Assembly (NCBI GenBank): GCA_964429225.1
Contig: CAYSAW010000002.1
Coordinates: 33,293-97,292 of the forward strand
Direction of reading: 5' to 3'
From: an uncultured bacterium
Lineage (GTDB): Bacteria > Armatimonadota > DTGP01 > CAYSAW01
DNA: 64,000 nucleotides
Position 1 is the first letter of the stretch, and the number at the start of each line of letters is the position of its first letter. This document shows positions 2,369-33,572 of this stretch, one piece after another. Under the pieces are notes generated by a model. The model ran no database searches. It was not told the origin of the DNA and saw nothing but the letters and a program-made list of their open reading frames with translations. A program made the translations under genes and the position numbers.

Positions 2369-3331
2369 TTGGAATGGATGATGAACCCTGCCTCCAATAG
2401 TATTCTCTCTGCTATCGGTCAGACTCCTCTTATTGCCCTGGATCGCCTCACTCAGGGGTTTCCGGGCCGAATTCTAGCCAAAGCGGAATATCTTAACCCT
2501 GGAGCCAGCATTAAGGATCGGATTGCCCTTAAAATTATTGAAGAAGCGGAGAAAAGCGGAAAGTTGAAACCCGGAGGTACTGTGGTGGAGCTGACCAGTG
2601 GTAATACAGGAATAGGGCTAGCCATCGTTTGTGCAGTTAAAGGTTATCGTTTGATCACCGTAATGTCTGCAGGAAATACCCCGGAGAGGGCCAAAATGTT
2701 AAGGGCTTTAGGAGCAGAGGTAGTCCTTGTGCCTCAAGCTCCTGGGTCACCTCCCGGACAGGTTTCAGGAGAGGACCTGGCCCGTGTAGAGGAGCGAACT
2801 CAGCAAATCGTTGAAGAAACAAAAGCTTTCCGAGCAGATCAATTTTATAATCCCCACAATCCCGAAGCCCAAGAACTAACCGGGGAGGAGATTTGGCAGC
2901 AGACTTCTGGTCAGTTGGACGCTTTTGTAGCGATAGTAGGAACTGGGGGGACTTTTATCGGCGTTTCTCGGGCTCTTAAACGGCACAAACCGGAGATTCA
3001 ATGCTTTGCGGTGGAGCCAGCTTCCGCACCCGTGTTAGCAGGCAAACCCATTATTAACCCCAACCATAAGATTCAGGGAGCCGGTTACTCGATGATCCCC
3101 CCTCTCTGGGATTCCTCCCTCTGTGATGGCTATCTCTCAGTAACCGATGAAGAAGCGATCACTATGGCCCGCCGTTTAGCCCGACAGGAGGGGATCTTTG
3201 CGGGTTTTAGCTCCGGAGCCAATGTTACAGCAAGCTTCCAACTCCTCCAACAGCACCCAGAGTGGAGGATTGCAACAGTCCTTCCGGATAGCGGGCTAAA
3301 GTATCTCTCCACTGATTTATGGGAAGGTTGA
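2369..3331 (+). CDS. cysK: Cysteine synthase / PLP-dependent beta-substituted alanine synthase (CysK/CysM family)
   Basis: PLP-lysine motif SIKDR. Glycine loop TSGNTGIGLA. 320 aa, typical fold-type II PLP enzyme length. Confidence 0.8.
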   Translation: MEWMMNPASNSILSAIGQTPLIALDRLTQGFPGRILAKAEYLNPGASIKDRIALKIIEEAEKSGKLKPGGTVVELTSGNTGIGLAIVCAVKGYRLITVMSAGNTPERAKMLRALGAEVVLVPQAPGSPPGQVSGEDLARVEERTQQIVEETKAFRADQFYNPHNPEAQELTGEEIWQQTSGQLDAFVAIVGTGGTFIGVSRALKRHKPEIQCFAVEPASAPVLAGKPIINPNHKIQGAGYSMIPPLWDSSLCDGYLSVTDEEAITMARRLARQEGIFAGFSSGANVTASFQLLQQHPEWRIATVLPDSGLKYLSTDLWEG

Positions 3332-3399
3332 GAAAGCTTTCACAAGAGAGGAGGTAAAAAGAAAAGCAAACATTACCTAGCTTTCTAAAGAAAAATTGC

Positions 3400-3675
3400 T
3401 TTGAGAACATTGGGAGATCCCTAGGACAGTACAGAACAGCAGGGTTTTGCTTTGTAGAAACTAGGAGGAGAACCTGTCCCCAAGCAAGGCCGATGAAGAA
3501 GGGGTGGGTCCCCTCTATCAAAGAGCAGTGTGAGAGGATGGGCATTCCTTTTTTCTTCAAGCAATGGGGAGGGACTCAAAAAGGGAGGGCTTTTAGAAAG
3601 GAAAGAGTACAACCCAAAGCCTGCCCTAGGGCCTTCTGCGGGTATACAGGCAAAGGCTTTTATTATAGATTATAG
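3400..3675 (+). pseudogene. 3' remnant of a DUF5131 (phage Gp37/Gp68-family) gene
   Basis: The stretch ARP...W...IKEQCERMGIPFFFKQWGG matches the conserved C-terminal signature of DUF5131 proteins (…QC..AGVPFFFKQWG). The upstream in-frame sequence lacks the rest of the domain. The ATG-initiated ORF 3493..3675 is only 60 aa. Confidence 0.4.
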
Positions 3676-3758
3676 CAAGTAAGGGTAAGTGCAATACACT
3701 GCGTCCCAATATCCCCTATCTTCTTCCTCCTCTGCAAGACTCTTTGTAAAATATAAGT

Positions 3759-4730
3759 GTGACACCAACGATTAAAGAAAAGTCTCCTCATCTCAGCCCT
3801 CCCACAGGAGCTCCACCTAGTCTAGGATGGCAAGGGATTACTGTATTCTTACCCGAGGACTGGGCCTTTTCTGCTTATTCCGGGGATTGGACCTCCGGAT
3901 ACCTACGAGCGGAAGGTCCCGAAGAGGTGGTGCTAGAAGTCAAATGGAATGAACAGAAAGGGGTTACCCATCTTCGCCGCATTCTGAAAGACTATTCCCG
4001 CCGAATGCACAAAATAGCCCGGCGTTCCTCGAAGGAGGTGCAGATCAAAGAAAAACCGAAAGCTCTTCAGGGACTGCGAAAGTCAGGAGTAGTTCCGATT
4101 ACCTTCTCCTGGGCCTCGGAACAAAACGCTTATGGCGCCCTTTGGCATTGTCCTCAATGTGATCGTATCGTCTTGGCTCAGGTTGTCGGGGCCTTGTCTC
4201 CCGAGAAGCTTGGCCCCCTGGCCTACAAAATCCTCCATTCCCTCCAGGACCACCCGGAAGGGGAGCTCGTGTGGTGGAGCGTATATGGATTTGCCTTTCA
4301 GGTACCGAAGAGCTATAAGTTAAATAAAGCCGATTTACGGTCCGGTTATCAATCTCTGGAATTCACCAATGGCTATCGCCAGCTTTGGCTCGACCGTTGG
4401 GGGCTAGCCGAAGTGATCTTGCGGAACACCTCCTTGAAAGAATGGTGGCCCAGGATTCTACAAAAGCGTTTAAAATCCTTCCGATGGGTTTTAGAGGACC
4501 GAGAAGTCAAGAAGGATAAAGGTCTCTTGGTCCTAGGCCAAAAACGCGGCCTGAGGTCTTGGGGGCGTCTGGTGCAACACCTCCTGCGTCGTCCGGGAAA
4601 GGACTATCTTCTTGGCTACGGATGGCATTGCCCATCCGGCAATCGCATCTATTCGGTGGTTTCCTTGGGGATGCAGGAGGAGAGTCGACTCTGTGTCGAA
4701 AGAATTCTCGAGTCGTTACGATGTCATTAG
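3759..4730 (+). CDS. Hypothetical protein with an internal two-fold repeat carrying a WHCP motif
   Basis: 323 aa with no family signature. Two similar segments: ALWHCPQCDRIVLAQVVG and YGWHCPSGNRIYSVVSLG. Its stop codon overlaps the start of the next gene (4721). Confidence 0.55.
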   Translation: MTPTIKEKSPHLSPPTGAPPSLGWQGITVFLPEDWAFSAYSGDWTSGYLRAEGPEEVVLEVKWNEQKGVTHLRRILKDYSRRMHKIARRSSKEVQIKEKPKALQGLRKSGVVPITFSWASEQNAYGALWHCPQCDRIVLAQVVGALSPEKLGPLAYKILHSLQDHPEGELVWWSVYGFAFQVPKSYKLNKADLRSGYQSLEFTNGYRQLWLDRWGLAEVILRNTSLKEWWPRILQKRLKSFRWVLEDREVKKDKGLLVLGQKRGLRSWGRLVQHLLRRPGKDYLLGYGWHCPSGNRIYSVVSLGMQEESRLCVERILESLRCH

Positions 4731-5194
4731 TAGAAGGCTTTCTTCGCTTTATAGGGTTTCCTGGCCTAAAAAAGAAACCGGAGCTCTCTCGAACAATGGT
4801 GCTTCGGGCCAGGCCTCTGCGAAACCCGTCAGTCCGATGGGAGGCAGAAGAGGGAGAAACCATTATTACGATCCCGTTGAAACCTAAAGGAAGAGGGGCA
4901 AAACTTCTGAGCCGTTTCTTCCCCAGCCCCGAGGAAAAGCAGATCGCTTTAGACGAAATTGGTAGTGAAGTTTGGGCTTTATGTGACGGACAAATAACCA
5001 TTGAACAAATTATCAAGAAAATCGCTGAAAAATATAAACTCAATCGGAAAGAAGCGGAGGCCTCCATTCTGGAGTACCTCCGGCAGCTGTCTCGGAAGAG
5101 GTTGATCATCGCTTTAGCCGACCCTCAAGAAGCAGAGGCTTTCTCTGCCTCTCAACCTTTAAAAAGAGGAAGCAAGAGAAAGGGAAAAAAATAA
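4721..5194 (+). CDS. PqqD-family protein (RiPP recognition element-like peptide chaperone)
   Basis: Core PqqD signature: RNPSVRWEAEEGETIITIP...LDEIGSEVWALCDGQITIEQIIKKIAEKYKL...EASILEYLRQL. The track ORF 4559..5194 overlaps the upstream gene. I placed the start at ATG 4721, which overlaps the upstream stop. Confidence 0.7.
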   Translation: MSLVEGFLRFIGFPGLKKKPELSRTMVLRARPLRNPSVRWEAEEGETIITIPLKPKGRGAKLLSRFFPSPEEKQIALDEIGSEVWALCDGQITIEQIIKKIAEKYKLNRKEAEASILEYLRQLSRKRLIIALADPQEAEAFSASQPLKRGSKRKGKK

Positions 5195-5216
5195 CCTTTA
5201 ACCTGAGAGGTAAACG

Positions 5217-5855
5217 ATGGCACGCGGAGAATTTACTGGGCGTGAACGCTTATTACAGCTCCCTTTTAAAACCGCCTTTCAGATTGCGATTAAGAGCATC
5301 GAGGTACGTTTCTGGAGGTCAATGATCACCGCTGCGGGGATATTCCTCGGCGTCACTTTCCTTTCAGCGGTTTTAACCAGTAGCGCGGCAATGGATCGAG
5401 TCATCGCCCTCTCGCCGATTCCTCCCGATAAGACTGCCATCGTATCCGCAAAGACCCGCAGTATGTGGCTGATCGCTATGTCCCTCATCGTTTCCGCAGT
5501 GGGCATCTCCAACTCGATGCTGATGTCGGTAACAGAGCGTTTTAAAGAAATTGGTACAATGAAATGTTTAGGCGCTTTAGATACTTTTGTCTATCGGTTG
5601 TTTATGATTGAAGCAGGGCTGTTAGGAATGATCGCCTCTGCCCTAGGATGGCTGTTAGGCTTTCTTCTGATGTTTTCGGTGTTCTGGATAAAGCATGGTT
5701 GGGAAGTAGTAGGAAGTATTGGTATCAGCGTCATCCTCAAAAACCTAGGAATTTGTCTTGGAGTAGGGATAGGACTTACCCTTTTAGCAACCTATTTCCC
5801 AGCCAAGCAAGCGGCTCGTCTTCCAGCAGCTGCCGCACTACGCACAGAGATTTAA
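5217..5855 (+). CDS. ABC transporter permease, FtsX-like (short form, 4 TM)
   Basis: 212 aa with four hydrophobic helices. FtsX-like motif region LMSVTERFKEIGTMKCLGA. Immediately upstream of an ABC ATPase. Confidence 0.75.
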   Translation: MARGEFTGRERLLQLPFKTAFQIAIKSIEVRFWRSMITAAGIFLGVTFLSAVLTSSAAMDRVIALSPIPPDKTAIVSAKTRSMWLIAMSLIVSAVGISNSMLMSVTERFKEIGTMKCLGALDTFVYRLFMIEAGLLGMIASALGWLLGFLLMFSVFWIKHGWEVVGSIGISVILKNLGICLGVGIGLTLLATYFPAKQAARLPAAAALRTEI

Positions 5856-5888
5856 GTCACTTTAAGGGTTTAAGGAGGCGTTAGGTAT

Positions 5889-6635
5889 ATGGCTGAAGTC
5901 TTCTCGGAATATATTGTACGCACCAAGGACTTAGTTAAAGAGTATGTAATGGGAAACACCGTTCTTCGGGCCTTGGACGGCATCCAGCTCGATGTACGCC
6001 GGGGAGAATATATCTCCCTAATGGGCCCCTCGGGGTCAGGAAAATCTACCCTCTTTAATATGATCGGAGGCCTCGACAAGCCGACCTCCGGATCAGTCTT
6101 TATCAACGAGGTAGACATCGCCCAGCTAGATGCTGCAGAGCTGGCCTACCTCCGTTGCCGGCAGATTGGGTATATCTTCCAAACCTTTAACCTTATCCCC
6201 GTTATGACCGCCTTGGAAAATGTTATGCTTCCGATGATCTTTGCCGGTGTTCCCACCGATGAGGGTACGGAACGAGCCATTAAATTGCTCGAAACAGTAG
6301 GATTAGGGGAACGTCTCCACCATAAGCCTTCGGAGCTCTCCGGTGGACAACAACAACGGGTAGCAGTTGCCAGGGCCTTGGCCAACGATCCCGCTATTAT
6401 CCTAGCAGATGAACCCACAGGTAACTTAGACCTCAAAACCGGCAAGGAGATCATTGAGCTCCTCCGACGAATGAATAAAGAACACGGGGTTACGATTATC
6501 TCAGCAACCCATGACTTGAAAATGATTGACGTCTCTGACAGGATTGTTCATATTCGAGACGGCCGGATTGAAAAGATCGAGAATCGAGCAGATATCGAGG
6601 TGCGCGTAGGAGAGATGGAGGAGCATCGTCGGTAG
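5889..6635 (+). CDS. ABC transporter ATP-binding protein (LolD/MacB/FtsE-like)
   Basis: Walker [13 protein letters not shown] signature [15 protein letters not shown]. Walker [13 protein letters not shown]-loop ATHD. Confidence 0.9.
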
Positions 6636-6842
6636 GTACACCTCCCTCTTCTTGAGAGGGATATCCTCAGAATTGCTGTGAACCGCTTAGGCCCCAGGTA
6701 AGTACTGCTCTATAAGGGGCCCTTTTCTTTAGCAGAAAACCTCCGAAAAGCCGAAACTCAGTTTTACTCCCGCTGAGGGAGGAAAAAGCTGGAAGCGATC
6801 AAGAATATAGAATTAAGCAAAAACTATAATGCGGAGGGAACT

Positions 6843-7547
6843 ATGGCTCGAAGATACCAGAGAGGCTTTACCCTCATTGAGCTCTTGGTAGTGATTGCGA
6901 TCATAGCCATTTTGGCAGCCATTCTCTTCCCCGTCTTCGCCCGGGCCCGAGAAAAGGCTCGGCAGGCTCATTGCTTCAACAATATGAAGCAAATAGGGCT
7001 AGCGATGATGCAATATGTCGAGGATTGGGATGGTTATTTCCCCTCCCACGACGATGGAGACCGCTTCTTTGAGCAATTTCGCCTCCAGGTTTACGCCAAA
7101 AGTGAAACCTTGTGGATTTGCCCTAGTGACAACGCCCCTATCTCCGCCAACCGGTGGATTAAGGAAGGGGGAAGAATGGTTCAGCGAAGCTATATCTGGA
7201 CCTCAGAGGTCATCGGCTATAACCCTGGCACTGCAGGCCCCGACGGGCATATCGGAGAGGTTAATTTAACTGATATCCGGGAACCCTCAGAAACGATTGC
7301 TATGGCGGAGAAGAGAACAGGGGTGGCAGACTTCCATTTGGATTGGCCTCAAGATATCCTCCCTCCGATAACAGGTACGGATTCCCTAGAAAAGCGGAGG
7401 CATAACGGGGGCGCCAACTTCATCTTCGCCGATGGACACGTTAAATGGATGAAATTCTCTCAAACTTTTTTCCCCAAAAACCTATGGGTCCGGGATAAAG
7501 CCTTCTGGGCAACCCGGCTCCCCAAAAACCTCAAAATTATTGACTGA
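6843..7547 (+). CDS. Prepilin-type N-terminal cleavage/methylation domain protein with DUF1559 C-terminus
   Basis: N-terminus [27 protein letters not shown] (class III signal/pseudopilin motif). C-terminal [16 protein letters not shown] typical of DUF1559. Confidence 0.8.
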
Positions 7548-7592
7548 TCTCCCCCAACCCTCCAACTTTAAAACCTACCAAGAAAAAGGATA

Positions 7593-7640
7593 AGGGTACA
7601 GGATTTGTAGTCCTGCACCCTTGTACTGATCCCCTTTGCA
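7593..7640. terminator. Candidate bidirectional intrinsic terminator between convergent genes (DUF1559 gene and rplL)
   Basis: Hairpin gggtacagga-tttgtag-tcctgcaccc: 10-bp stem with one mismatch. On the minus strand it is followed by a T-rich run (tcctttttcttggtaggtttt). Confidence 0.5.
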
Positions 7641-7654
7641 GGAGGGAAAGAGGG

Positions 7655-8053
7655 TTATTTAATTTCGACGGTAGCTCCCTGCTCCTCCAATTTGGCCTTA
7701 ATCTGCTCAGCCTCCTCCTTGGAGACACCCGTTTTAACAGGTTTAGGAGCAGTATCCACTAGCTCCTTTGCTTCTTTTAAGCCAAGATTGGTGATCTCAC
7801 GAACCACCTTGATGACCTGGATCTTCTTCTCTCCGGCGTTGGCCAGAATAACATCGAAGGTACTCTTCTCCTCAGCAGGGGGAGCTTCCGCTACCGCTCC
7901 TCCAGCAGGTGCTCCTGCAGGGGGAGCAGCAACAGCCACAGGAGCGGCTGCGGTTACCCCATACTTCTCCTGAAGCCCCTTCACAAACTCATTGAGTTCC
8001 AGGACTGTCCAAGAATCAATAGCTTCCAAGACTTCTTGGGGTGTAATGGGCAT
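7655..8053 (-). CDS. rplL: 50S ribosomal protein L7/L12
   Basis: [25 protein letters not shown]...Ala/Pro hinge...[24 protein letters not shown]...ATVEIK. AAGGAGG Shine-Dalgarno sequence upstream of the ATG at 8053. The track ORF extends further upstream to 8101, which I consider too long. Confidence 0.92.
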
Positions 8054-11367: not shown

Positions 11368-13323
11368 GTGATGAGTAGTAGGGAGCTAGGAAGAGAGAAC
11401 GAAGGGAATAATGGAGCCCAATTCCTTATATCCACCTTGACTGAAGAGATGATAACCAATACCTGGCTCTCTATGATTAAAGGACGATTAACGCTAACCC
11501 TCTTACTCCTCCTTACCTGCCTAGGAATCTACTCCCGAGCAAAAGCAGAAGAGGAATCCATAAAAATCGGGGTATTCCGAGACCTTCGCTTATGGGCCTC
11601 TTTATACTGCCGAGGAGTACCCATTGACTACCTAGAAGATCTAGAGCTTCTCCCTTCTAAAGGATACCACCTCCTGCTGGTACAGGCCTCAGAGATTGAA
11701 AACCCCAAGGATCTCCTAACCCTCCTAAGGTATAGTCAAGAAGCCTCCCTCTTCCTATTAGGATGGGGGCCTTTGATAGACTCTCTTCCTAAGGAGGAGC
11801 AGAGACTCTGGGAAGAACTCTCCTCCTCCCTAGGGCTTCATCACCTTCGCTGGGTGCCCCAAGGGAGGAGATGGATCCGGCTCCGAGAGGAGGAGTTCTC
11901 TCCATCCCCCGGACTCCCAACCGTTCTCGACCTAGGGGAAGGACCTTCCCTGAGTGCAGAAGTTCAAGAAGGAGGCCGAGTTCTTGCCGAATGGGTCACC
12001 TCTCAGGGAACAGAAGTGGAAAAGGGACGCAGTGCCTGCTTGATACAAAGGGGAAAGCACTTATGGCTCTCTTTCGACTTTAAGATGCGCGGCGGGGATT
12101 TAGATATCCTCTTAAACCTTCTCCTCCAAACCCTCCGATATTCTCTGCCGGAGTTAAAACTCAGAAGCCTTCCCGAGAAACAAAACATCCCCTCGGTAAA
12201 AGGTCCTCCCAAGGAACAGATCTTGGCCCTCCCCTGGGAGGTTTTATCCTCCTTTAAAGAGTATCCTCCTCCTTCCTCTTTTTCTCCCCTCTGGAACGGC
12301 CTTGCTTTAGAGCTGGCCCGGGCGGGACAGGCCCTCTATCCCTCGGACTATCAAGTGATCGCTCCCAAAAGCTGGGGAAACCTAGAGGACTGGATAGTGC
12401 GGCTAAAAGCCGAAGGGCTACGCCTTTATCTCCTTTTCCCTCTTCTATCGGCCGGGGAGAAGAGGCTACAAGGCCCCTTACTCCGGTATAAGCCCGATTG
12501 GGGCCTCTTCCCTCCTTCTTCCACAGAGGAGTTCTGGTTCAATCCCTCCCTACCCGCTTTCAGGGAGTGGAGTCGAGAGGCCTTAGCAGAGATTCTGAAA
12601 GCCCTCCCTTGGGATGGCGTCCTCCTTACCGATTGGATACCCCCTAGGGAAAAGACCCTAGAATATCTCCCCGCATCGCGCTTACTCGTTACTGAACTCT
12701 GCTCGGTTGTCCGACGGATCCGAAGGAGCTTAGTCATCGGCTTAGAGGACGACGGAAGCTTAGGGAGTGGACTTCCCATAGATTTTTATTTCCACCCTCA
12801 GCCTCCTAAAAGGCTTCACCTACTATCTTTAATCTCTTTTCAGATAAGCCCTTATTGGTGGTTAGAACCAGATAGGTGGAAGCTGGAGGAAAGCTCCTTG
12901 GGGTTCCTCCTCTGGTGGAGGCCCGAACTACCTCTTCAGATGATAAGTCTTCCGGGGCCACCCGGGCAGAAAAAGATGGCCAAAGCCTCTCTTCAGGACC
13001 CCATCGCAACCGCTTTGTACTACTGCGCTCAAGTACTGGAATTCACTGCTTCGAGAAAGGTGGAAAAGGCCCTTTTGGAGATCAATCTCGCTCTATCGAC
13101 TGAGGAGCAGGAAAAGCGTATCCATCTGCTAAAGCAGGCTCAATCCCTGTTAGTCCAGGAACTTCGCCAGAGAAAAGAGGCACCCTATCATCCCACACCT
13201 ATGGGGGATTTAAGGAGGAAAATGGGTCTTGCAATAGGACTTATTAGCTTACAGGTCCGAAATGAGGCCCCCACTCCTTTGCCAGACGCTGGCCTTGAGC
13301 CAGAAGTCGTTCCATCTCGGTAG
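11368..13323 (+). CDS. Hypothetical secreted/membrane-anchored protein (about 650 aa), function unknown
   Basis: Long ORF with a hydrophobic N-terminal signal-like segment (LTLTLLLLLTCLGIYS). The true start may be an internal Met (MIKGRL). The 3' end overlaps the convergent aldo/keto reductase gene by 80 bp. Confidence 0.5.
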   Translation: MMSSRELGRENEGNNGAQFLISTLTEEMITNTWLSMIKGRLTLTLLLLLTCLGIYSRAKAEEESIKIGVFRDLRLWASLYCRGVPIDYLEDLELLPSKGYHLLLVQASEIENPKDLLTLLRYSQEASLFLLGWGPLIDSLPKEEQRLWEELSSSLGLHHLRWVPQGRRWIRLREEEFSPSPGLPTVLDLGEGPSLSAEVQEGGRVLAEWVTSQGTEVEKGRSACLIQRGKHLWLSFDFKMRGGDLDILLNLLLQTLRYSLPELKLRSLPEKQNIPSVKGPPKEQILALPWEVLSSFKEYPPPSSFSPLWNGLALELARAGQALYPSDYQVIAPKSWGNLEDWIVRLKAEGLRLYLLFPLLSAGEKRLQGPLLRYKPDWGLFPPSSTEEFWFNPSLPAFREWSREALAEILKALPWDGVLLTDWIPPREKTLEYLPASRLLVTELCSVVRRIRRSLVIGLEDDGSLGSGLPIDFYFHPQPPKRLHLLSLISFQISPYWWLEPDRWKLEESSLGFLLWWRPELPLQMISLPGPPGQKKMAKASLQDPIATALYYCAQVLEFTASRKVEKALLEINLALSTEEQEKRIHLLKQAQSLLVQELRQRKEAPYHPTPMGDLRRKMGLAIGLISLQVRNEAPTPLPDAGLEPEVVPSR

Positions 13324-14215
13324 CGGTTAAAGGGCGGAAACTGCGAGCCACTTTCACTGCTTGCTCCACCTGCACCAGATCACGCATTCCTATCACAGCG
13401 ATAGCTACTCCGGGGAGGCTTAGGGCGTATCGGAGGGCGTCGGAATAAGCTTCACCCGATAACCGTCCTGGAGCGGGAGGATGGTATTGAAACCCAACTG
13501 GTCCTCCGAGGACCTTCATTGCAGCGATCCCTAAATTGCGTTTCCGAGCTTCTGGAAGGACTCTCTCTTCAAAGTTATAAGTAAAGCGATCTACATAATT
13601 AATAGCTACCATCAGGGCATCAATTTGTCCTGTCCGCAGAGCTGGGAGAAACTTACCAGGGCGATTATGACCACTTACCCCGATGAAGCGAAGCCATCCT
13701 CTGGCCTTAGCCTCGAGTAAACCTGCCAATGCTCCATCCTTGCCTAACACCAAGTCCACATCCTCATCCCCAAGACTATGCAAGTGAACTAGGTCTAAAC
13801 GATCGGTCTGAAGGCGTCTTAAGCTCTCTTGAACCTGGCGTAAAGCTCCCTCTTTGTCCTGCTCCTCGACTTTAGTGACCAGGAAGATCTCTTCCCTCCG
13901 CCGTTTCACTACAGGGCCTAATTTTTCCTCCACATTACCGTAATTGGGGGCAGTATCAATATAAGTAACCCCTCGATCAATCGCTCCGTTAACCACCTTT
14001 TCTACTTCCTTCTGGGGAAAATCCTGAAGGGTTGCGGAACCTAGCCCAATAATGGGGACCCTCACCCGGGTTCTACCGAAAAGGCGAGTAGGGAGAGAAC
14101 CCCCTCCCTCCCGGGCTTCGGCTATGGTTCCTCCGGTGATAAGATGATCCGCAAGGGTTAGGCCTCCAGCACTCGAGACGATCCTCTCCAGGAATTCTCG
14201 GCGAGTGATTTTCAT
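13244..14215 (-). CDS. Aldo/keto reductase, probably Tat-exported
   Basis: Twin-arginine-like N-terminus MKITRREFLERIVSSAGGLTLA. AKR motifs IIGLGSATL and GVTYIDTAPNYGN. Confidence 0.85.
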   Translation of the reverse strand: MKITRREFLERIVSSAGGLTLADHLITGGTIAEAREGGGSLPTRLFGRTRVRVPIIGLGSATLQDFPQKEVEKVVNGAIDRGVTYIDTAPNYGNVEEKLGPVVKRRREEIFLVTKVEEQDKEGALRQVQESLRRLQTDRLDLVHLHSLGDEDVDLVLGKDGALAGLLEAKARGWLRFIGVSGHNRPGKFLPALRTGQIDALMVAINYVDRFTYNFEERVLPEARKRNLGIAAMKVLGGPVGFQYHPPAPGRLSGEAYSDALRYALSLPGVAIAVIGMRDLVQVEQAVKVARSFRPLTATEMERLLAQGQRLAKEWGPHFGPVS

Positions 14216-24541: not shown

Positions 24542-26893
24542 TTACCTTGAAGGTTTAACCCCCGAAGTTAAAGAAACGTTCTCCCCCTTAAGGGATAAAC
24601 CCAAGAAAGAGGGGAGGTAAACCAAAGCGGTAGCCCCAGCCAGAACGCCGGCATCATTCAAAAGGGTAGCAGTACCAACCACCGCCAAAAGCCCGCAGAA
24701 GCTTGCCCTCCAAGAGAGATTCTGCCATGCCCGAGGAAAAGCCAACCTCCTTCGCCATAAGCACAGAAGACTTGCTAGAAAGGCCCAAAGAAGAAGCCGG
24801 CTCCAAGGGCTAAAGAGAAAGAGACGGAGATTCATCGAAGCTTTCCTCACAACTATCCGCCAAAACTCAATAAACCCTTCTTGACGCACTCCTTGGAAAG
24901 CGAGGGCTATATGACTGCTTGCCCCTCCCCGATGAAGGTCAACAATGACTACCAGGGCAACAGCGGAGAGAAGGATCAACAACAAAAGAATAAGGTGCTT
25001 TAGCCGGAAGGAGATCCGCATTAAGAGAAGTAGCAAAACCCCCAGACCAAAGGAGGCGGAAAGCACCCCTCCAAACTTGGCACCCCAAGAAGGCCCTCCA
25101 AGAACCACTAAAGAGAGGAGAAGAATACTGAAAGTAAAGAGCTTTATGCCTAAAGTCTCCCGGATCGAGAGAGGAAGAGTAGCTACTAATATTGAGGAAG
25201 CGAGGAAGGCTCCCATCCACTCATTGCCCATCCCGTAATAGCGTGCTCCTTCAATCAAGGAGTAGCTTAAAAGGGTAAAAGGAAGGCGTGGAAACCCTTG
25301 AAAGCCATCTACGAAGGCCGAAAGGATTAGGATACCGGCCGGGAGGAGAAGACTGAGTTCTGGTTTCCCCATTCTCCGAGCGATGAAAAGGCTGAGGAGA
25401 ATAGAAAGTATCCAAAGAAAGACGAGAAAAAAGCTATAAGCTTGGACAGAGAAGAGAGGAAACCAAGCAACGAGATAGAAGGACGAAAAGAGGGAAGGGA
25501 CAACGAACCAGAGAAGAAGAGGAATACGAAACCCCTTTAATAGAAAGAGGCTTAGGAAGAGCATAAAAATCTGTAGGAAAGTAACAACCGGTCGAAGTAA
25601 ACGCCGACGCAGAATCTCTGCTGAAAGTAAGGAGGAGCGGTAAGTACTCAACTCTGAAACCGCATCCGAGGAGAAAAAAGCCCTCAGAGGACGGCCCACC
25701 ATTACATTAGGAACAGGGATATGAAACCATTCTAGGATGGTCGGTGCAATATCAGTATTTGCCACTACTCCCCTTTGGCGAGTAGTGGCACTCGTGAGTA
25801 TCCCCCTCCGTTGACCATCTATAAGAATCACCGGGGTGAGGGAGTCAAAGCTAAGCCTAGCCCTCCGAGAAGGGTAGGGTACAAGAAATATTAGGAGATC
25901 TCGGTTAGGGCGATAAAGCTTTTCTAATTCCTGAAGGAAAACATCCAAACGTTGCAAGGCTCTTTCTCGCTCTTGGACAAGGCGTTGTTCCTCCCACTTC
26001 TCTGAAGCCTTGTCCAACCGGGCAGTATCCCCCCACTCTATGAGCAAAAGATGACAACGTTTCAACCCTTCCTGAGTCGCTTGAAAATAAGCCTTTGGAT
26101 CACAAGCAACTCCATCAGGGCTTGAAGGGTCTTGGCTCAAAAGCTCCTCTTCTCCTTTATAAAAGAAAACTGTCCCTCTTTGGTCCATAACCGAAAGAGC
26201 TGGTTCCCGGCCTTCTTCCTCCGGGTTTCCTCCCCCCCCTACTAAACCTGCTTTCACCCCTTGCCCTTGGAGAAGAGTCCCCAGGATACCCAAATCCGTC
26301 CGATAGCTCAACCGGTTGTTAATCTCTTTGAGGAGATCAATGCTAGGAAGTAACAAACCCTGGTCTTCCCTCCCCTCTTTGGAGGTAAAGGGAGGGGGAC
26401 GGAGGCTATCTCTCAGGTATTTTTCTCTTCCCGTAGCGGTATCCACTTTTTCAGAAGGGAGGTAGAATCGAGCAAGGTTCTGGGGTGCAAAACAACGGGT
26501 TCCTGCTCCTAAAGTAAGATAAGCGCTTGCTCTAAAGTTATCATAATTCTTATCAGAAGGAGAAGGAATCCGTACGCTAGCTACTCGGGTATTCATCATC
26601 CCCAAGGCACCTCGACGGATCCATTCCTGTAACCCAGGAAGAGGCTTTCGGAAGAGATCGGAAAAGCTGACCGCCGGAACAGAGAGGAGGATACATCGCT
26701 TAGGAGGTTGAGAGCTCCCCGAGGGATCACTGAGCGGAGTTGGAGAAGAAGGATTTCCCATACCCCAGCAAGCTGAAACCAAACTTAAGAAGATCCCTAA
26801 GAAAGGCCCGAAAAGGCTTTTAGGAAAAAGAGCAAGAAGAAAGCCTTGATCCGTAGGCATCTCCTCTAAAAAATTAGCGCAGGACTTCCTCAT
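24542..26893 (-). CDS. Fusion protein: N-terminal alkaline-phosphatase-superfamily (sulfatase/phosphotransferase-like) domain plus C-terminal polytopic membrane domain
   Basis: VANTDIAPTILEWFHIPVP motif (the DIAPTIL metal-site motif of the AlkP/sulfatase/PglZ superfamily) at around aa 380. About 12 predicted TM helices follow. Overlaps the upstream GT4 gene by 20 bp, suggesting one operon. Confidence 0.65.
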   Translation of the reverse strand: MRKSCANFLEEMPTDQGFLLALFPKSLFGPFLGIFLSLVSACWGMGNPSSPTPLSDPSGSSQPPKRCILLSVPAVSFSDLFRKPLPGLQEWIRRGALGMMNTRVASVRIPSPSDKNYDNFRASAYLTLGAGTRCFAPQNLARFYLPSEKVDTATGREKYLRDSLRPPPFTSKEGREDQGLLLPSIDLLKEINNRLSYRTDLGILGTLLQGQGVKAGLVGGGGNPEEEGREPALSVMDQRGTVFFYKGEEELLSQDPSSPDGVACDPKAYFQATQEGLKRCHLLLIEWGDTARLDKASEKWEEQRLVQERERALQRLDVFLQELEKLYRPNRDLLIFLVPYPSRRARLSFDSLTPVILIDGQRRGILTSATTRQRGVVANTDIAPTILEWFHIPVPNVMVGRPLRAFFSSDAVSELSTYRSSLLSAEILRRRLLRPVVTFLQIFMLFLSLFLLKGFRIPLLLWFVVPSLFSSFYLVAWFPLFSVQAYSFFLVFLWILSILLSLFIARRMGKPELSLLLPAGILILSAFVDGFQGFPRLPFTLLSYSLIEGARYYGMGNEWMGAFLASSILVATLPLSIRETLGIKLFTFSILLLSLVVLGGPSWGAKFGGVLSASFGLGVLLLLLMRISFRLKHLILLLLILLSAVALVVIVDLHRGGASSHIALAFQGVRQEGFIEFWRIVVRKASMNLRLFLFSPWSRLLLWAFLASLLCLWRRRLAFPRAWQNLSWRASFCGLLAVVGTATLLNDAGVLAGATALVYLPSFLGLSLKGENVSLTSGVKPSR

Positions 26894-28131: not shown

Positions 28132-29664
28132 TTGTCAACCCTAAGGTGCTGTCTTTCCATCATTGGTATTCTGTTAATGACCCTCCTTCTCCCTTCAGGC
28201 TCAAAGGGGAGGGATGGTGCTGGAGGTATAAGGAGGGTACTTTTCCCTCCCCGGCTTCCACCAGCACAAAATTCCTCTCCTGGCCCCCTTGTGGAAGATA
28301 CTCCAAAGCCTTTACTCACTTCGGAGGAGGAAGCAGAAACCCTATTCTATTGGATAGGGCGCGTCAACCTTACTCACCTTGCTCTCCTCTCTGGTATGGG
28401 AGAACCTGCTCAATTCAGTACTGAAACTCTTCGAAGGCTAACTACCCTCTTAAAGACAGAAATTCCCTCAGGTTACTCTCTACTCCAGAATGTTTATCCC
28501 TCCTCCTATCCGTTATTGGCCTCTCAACCGGTAGCAACTAAGAGAGAAAGTTGGCGATGGACACCTGCTCAATTTGAAAAGAGTTACAATCCCGAAGCCA
28601 TCGCCCTAACCATCGTGAAGTTGGCCCAACCTCAGTTCCACCTCCAATACCACGATACTCCTGAGGATCAGAAAGAAGCCATCTTGGGATTAGCCAGTGC
28701 TATGGAGATGGCAAGCTTCCTCTACAACCGCTTGCGCGATGAGAAAGGACAATTTATCGCTCTTCCGCCTCATCCGAAAGCCCCTCCTGTCCGCTACCAA
28801 TCCGTTTGCCTTTGGGCTTTTTGTGCCCTGCTCTACCTCACCCAGGAAAAACAAGACAACTACTTTCATCGGTCTGCAAAGGAGATTCTCGACGCAAAAG
28901 CCCTTAAAAAGTGGGCAGAAAGGGCTTTCCAAACCCTGAGTCAAAGGGATTTCTCTTCAGTGGAGGATTTATCTTTAGCAATAGAATCGGTCGCTTGGTT
29001 TTCAGCGGTCTCCGAGGAAGCCTCCCGAAAGAAGGCTTTAGCTTTACTCAGCACTTTCGGTGAGAAAGTTCTGAGCTTGCCAGCAAGAACTCTGCAAGCC
29101 TTAGGGTTTAAAATCTACGCCCTCTACGAAGTCTACCGAGCTACCCGACGAGAATCCTTCCAGAAAGGGGCGGATTTCCTAATCACTAAAGAGTTAGAAC
29201 AATTTTGGAGGGAGGAAGCGGGTGCTTATCTGGAAAAATCAGGGGAAACCCTTTATACCCTTTGGCAAGCTGCTAGTCTCATGATGGCCCTCAATGCTGG
29301 CCGGCAATTCGGAAGCCCAGAGGCCCGGCAATTAGCTCGCTCCCGCTTTATCACCCTAGGGGAGACGCTCTTTTTGCGCTCCGGTCTCCAACGAGCCTCC
29401 GGGGTAGAGTTAATCCCAGAGGTTTACCGCCGCGAAGTTGCTCTTTTAGAGAAAGTAGACCGTATTTTACCTCGATCGAGTGACCTTAAGGAGGCTCCGG
29501 TATTCCGGGCTGGGGTTCGCTATATCGAAGGCCGATGGCAGATTCAATCGGGGCGCTTTATTACCGCACCGGCTATGTTGCTAGCCATTGCTTTGGCACC
29601 CAAAACAGGTCTCTCCCCCGATGGTTTTTCCCCTGCTCACCGCCTGAGACCCCCCTCCCCTTAA
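28132..29664 (+). CDS. Hypothetical secreted protein (510 aa)
   Basis: N-terminal hydrophobic signal (IIGILLMTLLLPSGS). No recognisable motif. Transcribed divergently from the GT4/AlkP-membrane operon. Confidence 0.5.
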   Translation: MSTLRCCLSIIGILLMTLLLPSGSKGRDGAGGIRRVLFPPRLPPAQNSSPGPLVEDTPKPLLTSEEEAETLFYWIGRVNLTHLALLSGMGEPAQFSTETLRRLTTLLKTEIPSGYSLLQNVYPSSYPLLASQPVATKRESWRWTPAQFEKSYNPEAIALTIVKLAQPQFHLQYHDTPEDQKEAILGLASAMEMASFLYNRLRDEKGQFIALPPHPKAPPVRYQSVCLWAFCALLYLTQEKQDNYFHRSAKEILDAKALKKWAERAFQTLSQRDFSSVEDLSLAIESVAWFSAVSEEASRKKALALLSTFGEKVLSLPARTLQALGFKIYALYEVYRATRRESFQKGADFLITKELEQFWREEAGAYLEKSGETLYTLWQAASLMMALNAGRQFGSPEARQLARSRFITLGETLFLRSGLQRASGVELIPEVYRREVALLEKVDRILPRSSDLKEAPVFRAGVRYIEGRWQIQSGRFITAPAMLLAIALAPKTGLSPDGFSPAHRLRPPSP

Positions 29665-32352: not shown

Positions 32353-33572
32353 CCCCTTGCGGGGGATTCAAAGGAGGAAACCTCTCTCCACTGATTCACC
32401 TGGAGGGGAGCGGAGAGGGTAATTTTTGTCCCCTTACCCGGGGCACTATCAATAATGAGGGATCCTCCGAGCATCTCAGCACGTTCTCGCATTCCCAGAA
32501 GCCCAAATTGTAAGGGGCGTCCGCTGTTCTGAAGCCCTTTAGGGTCAAAACCTTTGCCATCATCCGCAACAACGATCTTCACTAAATCCTCTTTAAACTT
32601 CATCTTCACCCGAACCTGGGTTGCTTGGGCGTGTTTCCGCACATTATTTAAGCACTCTTGAACAATCCGGAAGAGCATCGTAGCAGTACGCCAGTCCGGC
32701 TCCACAACTTTTCCCTTGACTTCAAACCGCCCTTGGAGTCCAGTAGACTCCAGAAACTCCCGGAAATATTGCTTCAGGGCGGAAACCAAACCAATATCGT
32801 CTAAGCCCGGAGGGCGTAAATCATTAATTAATCGGCGAAGTTCGGCGATATTAGCCCTTAGAGCTTCCTCCACCTCCTCCAGCTTTCGGGCGGCGGTCTG
32901 AGGGTCTTTCTCAAAAAGAAGCCGGCAAGTTTGCAAAGTCAGCAGAACCGCCGACATACTCTGGGTAGGCCCATCATGGATTTCGATAGAGATCCGCCGC
33001 CGTTCATCCTCCTGGGCGGTAATAATCTGAGCCAGCAATTGATTTTGACGCTGGTTCATCTCCGCCAGAAGCCGATTCCGCTCGATAATCTCCCTCTCCC
33101 GAGCTTCAAAGTAGGCTGAAGCGATAATCGCAAAATCGTTGTGGAGGAGAGCATCTAAACTCATCAGTATCTCTAAGGCTTCCTCGGGACTCTCAATCTC
33201 CTTAGTGATATAGGGTAGGTAAGCGTCCTCGAGGAGATGAACCCAAGCGGTGAGGCTTTCATAAGAAACTTGGCGAGCGACAAACTCCCGGGCCGCCTGA
33301 GCAATCTGACGGTAATATTGATCTAAGGGAAGCTCACTCAAAGACCCTATCAACAAATCATATTCCCTTCGAGAACACTGAAGGACCTGCACCTCCTCAG
33401 GAGCAAGGTGTTTTCGGGCAAAGGCCCGGTATTCCCGCTCCCATTGATCAATTGCCGCCGGAGCGTAGCGATTAAGACGGCATGCAATCTCCCGAATTTG
33501 CTTTTCTACTTCCGGCTCTAAATCCAGGACTCCTGTTTCAATCATAGCAACCAGCGTATCCTGCACCTTCAA
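32349..33572 (-). CDS. Sensor histidine kinase (HisKA_3 / NarX-LiaS type), apparently cytoplasmic
   Basis: H-box ITAQEDERRRISIEIHDGPTQ. HATPase_c motifs (VADDGKGFDP, GLLGMRERAEMLGG). No TM segment in the ~190-aa N-terminal region. 4-bp overlap with the response-regulator gene. Confidence 0.85.
   Translation of the reverse strand: MKVQDTLVAMIETGVLDLEPEVEKQIREIACRLNRYAPAAIDQWEREYRAFARKHLAPEEVQVLQCSRREYDLLIGSLSELPLDQYYRQIAQAAREFVARQVSYESLTAWVHLLEDAYLPYITKEIESPEEALEILMSLDALLHNDFAIIASAYFEAREREIIERNRLLAEMNQRQNQLLAQIITAQEDERRRISIEIHDGPTQSMSAVLLTLQTCRLLFEKDPQTAARKLEEVEEALRANIAELRRLINDLRPPGLDDIGLVSALKQYFREFLESTGLQGRFEVKGKVVEPDWRTATMLFRIVQECLNNVRKHAQATQVRVKMKFKEDLVKIVVADDGKGFDPKGLQNSGRPLQFGLLGMRERAEMLGGSLIIDSAPGKGTKITLSAPLQVNQWREVSSFESPARG

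Follow-up and report, generated by a model that had tools for sequence, protein, structure and literature searches.

The window analysed here is a 64,000-nucleotide stretch of contig CAYSAW010000002.1 (forward strand, positions 33,293 to 97,292) in assembly GCA_964429225.1 of an uncultured Armatimonadota bacterium. Positions 3759-6635 of the window contain four intact, co-directional and tightly packed open reading frames (ORFs), which encode a 323-residue protein (called X below), a protein with the RiPP recognition element (RRE) of the PqqD family, a small FtsX-type permease and an ATP-binding cassette (ABC) ATPase. RREs bind the leader peptides of peptides that are made on the ribosome and modified after translation (RiPPs). 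All four ORFs were recovered where an earlier reading of the bare sequence (the original prediction) had placed them. The module and its left border comprise:

about 3685..3758, + strand: conserved upstream segment, left border of the module, found by alignment with a sister species (locus L063)
3759..4730, + strand: X, 323 residues, GTG start; no family match, predicted tandem-domain model
4721..5194, + strand: PqqD-family RRE protein, 157 residues (PF05402)
5217..5855, + strand: small FtsX-type (MacB/LolC-like) permease, 212 residues (PF02687)
5889..6635, + strand: ABC ATPase of the LolD/MacB/FtsE type (PF00005, intact motifs)

That an FtsX permease and an ABC ATPase directly follow the RRE gene, as originally proposed, is confirmed by matches to PF02687 (E=2.2e-17) and PF00005 (E=2.4e-35). 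The ATPase also matches the LolD model (E=4.7e-72) and the N-terminal model of MacB (E=2e-66), and its translation contains intact Walker A, signature, Walker B and H-loop motifs. The permease has four transmembrane (TM) segments by hydropathy, and the MacB and LolCE models match only its C-terminal TM2-4 part. About 25 residues separate TM1 from TM2; thus, this is a small permease without an extracytoplasmic domain. Ribosome-binding sites are present for both genes (GAGAGG for the permease and AGGAGG for the ATPase). Judged by motifs and profile matches, the ATPase and the four-TM permease are an intact LolD/MacB-type pair of the type VII family.

The RRE protein scores 51.9 bits against PF05402 (curated cut-off 23.4; E=9.5e-14), in agreement with its initial designation as a clear PqqD-family member. 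It has the canonical fold, in which a winged-helix core of three helices comes after a three-stranded sheet, and can be superimposed on solved RREs. Its scores fall below the NCBIfam cut-offs of both lasso PqqD models (40.3 versus 80 and 12.6 versus 70), of the PqqD model of pyrroloquinoline quinone (PQQ) biosynthesis, TIGR03859 (36.2 versus 46), and of the GeoRSP (28.8 versus 100), ScmD (20.1 versus 100) and WgkC (26.1 versus 110) models. On these profile scores, it is a true PF05402 member that stands outside all specific NCBIfam PqqD subfamilies. Among 66 system-linked homologues, conservation is highest in helices 1 and 3 and where strand 3 ends, the best conserved residues being L77, D78, G81, W85, D89, G90, E111 and E113. 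These residues appear to surround the canonical predicted peptide groove (strand 3/helix 3), where RREs clamp a peptide strand. The protein also carries a subfamily-specific RPxRNP motif before strand 1 and a basic C-terminal tail. Its ATG (4721) lies upstream of the TAG of X (4728-4730), and this 10-nt overlap, read directly from the sequence, bears out the predicted overlap of start and stop. Because the overlap comes without a Shine-Dalgarno sequence for the RRE gene, translational coupling is implied.

X has no match in Pfam or NCBIfam at E ≤ 1 and none in PADLOC, and profile and sequence searches of the PDB with it returned nothing relevant. Neither X nor the RRE protein has a signal peptide or TM segment; X lacks any hydrophobic segment by hydropathy and is therefore cytoplasmic. 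An AlphaFold model built from an 11-sequence alignment (predicted local distance difference test score 85.4, predicted template modelling score 0.80) comprises two similar tandem alpha/beta domains. The two halves of X are homologous (hhalign of N-half against C-half profiles, 97.8% probability, E=1.2e-12, 138 aligned columns), and BLAST alone detects the internal repeat at E=3e-4; the duplication that the original prediction ascribed to this protein is therefore real at both the profile and the model level. The model resembles the PsbP/Mog1/DcrB/DUF1795 superfamily at the level of fold, with 7-14% sequence identity. According to the model, X consists of two fused copies of a PsbP/Mog1/DcrB/DUF1795-type binding fold, a pseudo-dimer produced by internal tandem duplication.

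Each repeat of X carries a Cys/His motif, W-H-C...D-H in the first (C131, H165) and W-H-C...C-H in the second (C291, C322, H323). The repeat alignment pairs C131 with C291 and H165 with H323, with C134 and D164 adjoining in repeat 1 and C322 in repeat 2. Conservation of C131, C291, C322 and H323 reaches at least 90% among 70 diverse members of the family, which suggests one metal or thiol site per repeat. These residues sit on a PsbP-like scaffold that differs from that of papain or transglutaminase with its Cys-His-Asp triad. On the evidence of the model, X is not a recognisable enzyme, and its fold is that of binding or adaptor proteins. Clustering at 50% identity gives 1790 family representatives at E ≤ 1e-3 and 282 at E ≤ 1e-30; fusions to PqqD or other domains were absent among 149 family representatives.

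Related loci were collected by homologue look-ups followed by a scan of species-representative genomes, and were annotated with six custom profiles. The 48 genome loci belong to Armatimonadota (including Chthonomonadales, with Chthonomonas calidirosea) and to Candidatus Poribacteria. X is followed directly by PqqD in all 48, and in further metagenome loci as well. Where the contig permits, the full order is a giant protein, a protein of about 670 residues resembling OPT-family transporters (OPT-like), X, PqqD, optionally the small FtsX permease, and the ABC ATPase. The small FtsX gene is found in the operon in Armatimonadota only; the OPT-like gene is present in one copy in Armatimonadota and in one or two copies in Poribacteria. 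ENA loci and independent loci from metagenomes, among them thirteen found in addition, agree with this arrangement. Two of the thirteen, on short contigs of high G+C (L095, 2-2818; L097, 1-2560), present the alternative order small FtsX-ABC-X-PqqD, which argues that the four genes form a unit. The full operon occurs in the genome of C. calidirosea, and an OPT-like homologue is recorded from a Fimbriimonas genome.

The giant protein (1300-2500 residues) begins with a signal peptide; its head is M28-like and in some cases PA-like, and is followed by three TM segments and then a MacB-type module (TM1, the periplasmic core domain MacB_PCD and FtsX TM2-4). It matches LolF, LolC, YtrF and MacB; its extracytoplasmic region, including the M28/PA domain, spans about 800-1600 residues, and one Poribacteria protein has a weak LysM match. 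A cytoplasmic domain of about 170 residues forms the C-terminus and is highly conserved (WLAPYDLGVSQ...RESGEI..WKRVNRRFLN..RKQ.LIWRT). Kinship of this domain with X or PqqD was considered and rejected (hhalign probabilities of about 1% or less). Compared with the Aeromonas aminopeptidase, the M28 head has Tyr in place of His97, and His plus Phe, Tyr or Asn in place of Glu151/Glu152. These substitutions hold in all 28 distinct giant sequences compared in which the motif was found (for example, L014 1795-6894 and L037 133-7566). The best PDB match of the head is an E151H mutant, and there is a weak match to Nicalin, a pseudo-peptidase (E=0.0089). The head thus lacks the canonical zinc ligands and the catalytic Glu, so the giant protein is probably not a peptidase and its head is probably a pseudo-peptidase domain.

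The protein of about 670 residues is polytopic. Several close homologues carry precomputed PF03169 matches, and some are named 'peptide transporter' by NCBI. In a Pfam scan of four OPT-like sequences, three had no match at E ≤ 1, and the fourth (P0172) had none at E ≤ 0.1 although PF03169 is precomputed for it; profile and sequence searches of the PDB gave nothing useful. From these annotations, the protein is classed as a distant, divergent member of the OPT family (PF03169). Its N-terminal cytoplasmic tail was considered as a conserved ligand of the RRE and rejected, as it is acidic yet variable and has no conserved motif. Further genes join the operon in subsets of the loci: a TatA-like gene that separates the OPT-like gene from X in eight Armatimonadota loci (for example, L035 8760-8978), a 55-residue protein with two TM segments between the giant and OPT-like genes in 30 Poribacteria loci (for example, L001 3427-3594), and a membrane protein of 270-300 residues inside the operon in nine Chthonomonadales loci (for example, L011 3929-4765). 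In one Poribacteria genome, an N6_N4 methyltransferase plus HNH gene is inserted between the giant gene and the 55-residue ORF (L008 3669-5273).

In the lineage of the window the canonical operon is dispersed: the OPT-like gene lies elsewhere in the genome and the four-gene half is retained. Searches of the 64-kb window with tblastn and custom hidden Markov models found no giant permease gene and no OPT-like gene. The sister species has the same layout as the window, namely PALP, debris, X, PqqD, FtsX, ABC, prepilin and ribosomal genes, and over aligned positions its RRE protein is 83% and its X 91% identical to those of the window. Directly upstream of the module lies the following fragment:

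3493-3675, + strand: 60-residue ORF, C-terminal fragment of DUF5131 (phage Gp37/Gp68-like; PF07505, E=5.3e-9, profile positions 191-233 of 243)

This fragment is mobile-element debris located exactly at the canonical operon break, and the debris at the corresponding break of the sister species consists of integrase and AAA_15 fragments. An intact OPT-like gene is present in the same sequencing sample as the X gene of the window, on a different contig and with the same G+C content (0.50), and is 73% identical to the OPT-like gene of a complete operon. In the sister species, the OPT-like gene stands alone between beta-propeller and PilT-like ATPase genes. The ratio of non-synonymous to synonymous substitution rates (dN/dS) against the sister species is 0.09 for X, 0.16 for the RRE gene, 0.03 for FtsX and 0.008 for ABC; dS of the four genes is about 0.5-0.65, and the ratios are like those of the flanking housekeeping genes. 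With intact ORFs under strong purifying selection, the module of the window is therefore functional and not a relic. A separate Poribacteria locus (L009/L010 9738-9911) retains a 58-residue OPT-like remnant upstream of X, PqqD and ABC, surrounded by transposases (DDE_5, IS66, DDE_Tnp_1), and looks like a truly degraded copy.

X also occurs in a second conserved context. With another X subclade as seed, a metagenome scan yielded high-G+C loci (L068-L091, L103 and L108; for example, L083 8740-12742) in which a paralogous X is tightly flanked by a SEDS RodA/FtsW gene on the 5' side (PF01098, E about 1e-97) and by a gene for a TPR protein of 550-600 residues on the 3' side. RodA is present in 13 of these loci and the TPR protein in 16; PqqD, FtsX and ABC genes are absent. 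In L089, a CreD-like protein takes the place of RodA and an SLT lytic transglycosylase gene comes next. A distant X homologue (L005 8001-8984, 25% identity) stands alone among archaeal-type neighbours (L3-L4-L23-L2 ribosomal genes and a Trm1-like methyltransferase), with no PqqD, ABC or RodA gene nearby. These RRE-free paralogues and the lone homologue indicate that X is not intrinsically RRE-dependent, and the suggestion that X is a new RRE-dependent enzyme finds no support. The original prediction had named X homologues that never co-occur with PqqD-like genes as evidence against itself; such homologues exist in the RodA-linked clade, whereas in the clade of the window's X, PqqD follows in every locus that reaches far enough. 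In both conserved contexts, the X gene lies directly 3' of a gene for a polytopic membrane protein, OPT-like or RodA.

The Pfam scan of the window covered 35 products, namely all called ORFs to about 21 kb plus the ten longest beyond that point (shorter ORFs past 21 kb were left out), and none of the 35 is a radical SAM enzyme, a YcaO protein, a lasso cyclase or protease, or a lanthipeptide enzyme. Likewise, no maturase was detected in about 60 related operons by precomputed Pfam matches or the six custom profiles. Positions 3300-6900 contain no plausible small precursor ORF, and the related operons share no conserved small soluble ORF; a precursor gene may nevertheless lie elsewhere in the genome. 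The original prediction had reported neither a tailoring enzyme nor a precursor ORF, and both statements hold within these limits. Of the two explanations it offered, use of the RRE outside RiPP biosynthesis is favoured, as X and PqqD always occur in a transporter operon free of maturases.

Upstream of the module lie GFO/IDH/MocA, TANGO2 and cysteine-synthase-like (PALP) genes. Only the last 75 nt or so of the 430-nt spacer between PALP and X align with the sister species, and farther upstream the two sequences differ. The conserved segment contains a promoter-like sequence, TTGTAAAATATAAGT, immediately 5' of the GTG start of X. Since no Shine-Dalgarno sequence precedes this start codon, the X transcript may be leaderless. 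Downstream follow a DUF1559 prepilin gene, an L7/L12-L10-L1-L11-NusG-SecE cluster, and UbiA, EPSP synthase and MreB genes; glycoside hydrolase and type IV pilus genes lie farther along. An Rfam search of 3000-7700 for regulatory RNA gave a single chance-level match, and a PADLOC search for defence systems found only generic ABC and FtsX similarity. Other features of the window are:

6707..6730, + strand: weak terminator-like hairpin with T-run after the ABC gene (consensus scan only)
6843-7547, + strand: DUF1559 / H-X9-DG prepilin-type protein, directly 3' of the ABC gene, likewise in the sister species
11368-13323, + strand: 651-residue ORF without Pfam match
24542-26893, - strand: 783-residue ORF without Pfam match
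28132-29664, + strand: 510-residue ORF without Pfam match

The hairpin may mark the end of the operon, but it counts as weak evidence, since such sites are fewer in the scan than expected by chance. The 651-residue ORF was considered as the missing operon gene of about 670 residues and rejected, being unrelated by BLASTP; its 3' end overlaps that of a convergent aldo-keto reductase gene (13244-14215) by 80 nt. PilT-like ATPase genes lie 3' of the operon in L002 and 3' of the stand-alone OPT-like gene in L066 and L109. The module may thus be loosely linked to type IV pilus or type II secretion system genes, or the proximity may be coincidence.

Taken together, the four genes probably constitute (at a probability of roughly 0.6) one half of a conserved, multi-component system of the envelope, the half that faces the cytoplasm and provides energy coupling, and not a RiPP cluster. 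At the core of this system would be a type VII ABC transporter. The best reading of X and the RRE protein is that they are cytoplasmic accessory subunits of this MacB/FtsX-type machine, with the RRE acting outside RiPP biosynthesis. In such a machine, an ATPase dimer would power the FtsX-type transmembrane bundle, in which the small permease, having no outer domain, would pair with the FtsX module of the giant protein or, where there is no such protein, homodimerise. The hydrolysis of ATP would in turn set the giant extracytoplasmic head in motion. We infer that X and the RRE protein, produced in equal amounts, bind each other and, as an adaptor in the cytoplasm, dock on the membrane components. 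The RRE would clamp an extended peptide segment, either a ligand or cargo peptide or the tail of a partner subunit, and would thereby control the gating or targeting of the machine.

For the role of the system, two leads stand out, peptide trafficking and cell-envelope remodelling, and neither is preferred. The former is suggested by the combination of an OPT-like transporter, an RRE and an M28/PA-like head. The latter follows from an FtsEX-like logic, from the weak LysM match in one Poribacteria giant protein and from the RodA-linked paralogues of X; in FtsEX, an extracytoplasmic effector domain is coupled to cytoplasmic ATP hydrolysis. A more specific proposal is tentative and has somewhat less than an even chance of being right: in a hitherto unrecognised six-gene envelope machine, the RRE and a metal- or thiol-bearing adaptor X would read a cytoplasmic peptide (an imported ligand or a partner tail) and gate a mechanotransmitting ABC transporter, and polytopic envelope proteins in general would have a cytoplasmic adaptor in the X family, given that paralogues of X pair with the SEDS glycosyltransferase RodA.

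Several points weigh against assigning the module to such an envelope system. To our knowledge, RREs have so far come only from RiPP or PQQ pathways, and we know of no MacB-type transporter that needs cytoplasmic peptide-binding subunits, so that the mechanism is without precedent. The genomes compared for synteny were chosen by one peptide pattern, and this sample is skewed towards two phyla. The giant permease was not located in the genome of the window, and the module may work without the giant protein. The Cys and His residues that are nearly invariant in X could have a catalytic instead of a structural role. Finally, a PqqD-like gene near enzymes, regulators and transporters is regarded as a strong indication of a RiPP cluster, and one beside a transporter is usually read in this way (PMC7470986).

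This last rule also counts in favour of a different view, namely that the genes serve a cryptic or novel RiPP or other leader-dependent pathway, in which the RRE binds a leader encoded elsewhere, X acts as a novel enzyme dependent on the RRE (a Cys/His leader peptidase or metal-dependent modifier, for instance), and FtsX/ABC exports the product or confers immunity. An ABC system does lie immediately 3' of the PqqD-like gene, lasso B1 proteins are structurally closest to the RRE, translational coupling of the kind seen here is frequent in B1/B2 pairs, and X has its nearly invariant Cys and His. However, the fold of X is of the PsbP/Mog1/DcrB binding type and not that of a transglutaminase, YcaO, radical SAM or other maturase, and its paralogues beside RodA work without any RRE. 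No cyclase or maturase was found among the 35 window products or in the roughly 60 related operons. The small genes that recur in the operons, each in a subset, encode the two-TM protein of 55 residues and the TatA-like protein, and none of the small soluble ORFs is conserved. We also know of no MacB/FtsX-type ABC system that carries a cytoplasmic peptide across the membrane. A RiPP pathway is accordingly quite unlikely. An export-targeting chaperone is unlikely as well: here X, like the DUF1795 Eag chaperones of type VI secretion system effectors, would shield a hydrophobic or unfolded segment of a client, itself a secreted or membrane protein, while the RRE grips an adjacent signal, and the client would be handed over to the OPT-like, giant FtsX and ABC components for insertion or release. 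The TatA-like gene within the operon of eight Armatimonadota loci and the position of X after a polytopic membrane-protein gene in both contexts are consistent with this idea, but no conserved client gene was identified, and the likeness of X to the PsbP/Mog1 superfamily is generic, at an identity of only 7-14%.

That the module is a functionless fragment of the six-gene operon, left to decay after a mobile-element rearrangement, is very improbable. Such a history would fit the absence of the two 5' operon genes from the whole 64-kb window, the mobile-element debris exactly at the break in both the window (DUF5131) and the sister species (integrase, AAA_15), and the truly degraded version in L009 and L010 with its OPT remnant and transposases. 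Against it stand four intact ORFs with complete motifs, dN/dS values of 0.008-0.16 at a dS of about 0.6 (comparable to those of neighbouring housekeeping genes), a conserved promoter-like segment upstream, and the intact OPT-like gene in the same sample, 73% identical to its complete-operon counterpart.

The envelope system proposed here differs from each of the characterised systems that share some of its parts. Lasso clusters contain a discrete RRE (B1, as in TbiB1 and TfuB1), a leader protease (B2) and an ABC exporter (D); in the window, X has a PsbP-like instead of the transglutaminase-like fold of B2, neither an Asn-synthetase-like cyclase nor a precursor gene was found, and the ABC system is a split one of the MacB/FtsX type rather than a fused McjD-type exporter. 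Compared with PQQ biosynthesis, the pqqA, B, C and E genes are missing and X replaces the radical SAM protein PqqE as the coupled neighbour. With the type VII ABC systems (MacB, LolCDE, FtsEX, YtrF and BceAB), the module shares the LolD/MacB/FtsE-like ATPase and the four-TM FtsX module, but its permease lacks the defining extracytoplasmic domain, whereas the giant partner in related genomes has MacB_PCD. We know of no characterised type VII ABC system with dedicated cytoplasmic subunits like X and the RRE protein, an OPT-like partner, a pseudo-M28/PA region or a cytoplasmic tail domain, nor of any OPT protein that is part of an ABC or RRE system. Unlike other PsbP/Mog1/DcrB/DUF1795 proteins, X is tandem-fused, cytoplasmic and equipped with conserved Cys/His motifs, shows no sequence-level membership, and has an RRE and an ABC transporter as its linked partners or, in the paralogous clade, RodA and a TPR protein. 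Full-text literature searches for this gene combination found no description of it.

The system of X, RRE and transporter appears to be a systematic exception to the RiPP rule of RRE-Finder. RRE/PqqD domains serve as a class-independent beacon for RiPP mining, and a large set of conserved, maturase-free transporter RREs would be systematic false positives in such searches; the system also offers the first good candidate for an RRE role outside biosynthesis. To ABC biology, it would contribute a MacB/FtsX-type machine whose dedicated subunits lie in the cytoplasm, whose giant head is a pseudo-peptidase and whose partner is OPT-like. The X family is large yet unclassified and has no Pfam entry, and its occurrence beside RodA is a hint that it has a wider part in envelope biogenesis. 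As the full operon is present in cultured Armatimonadota, the system is open to experiment.

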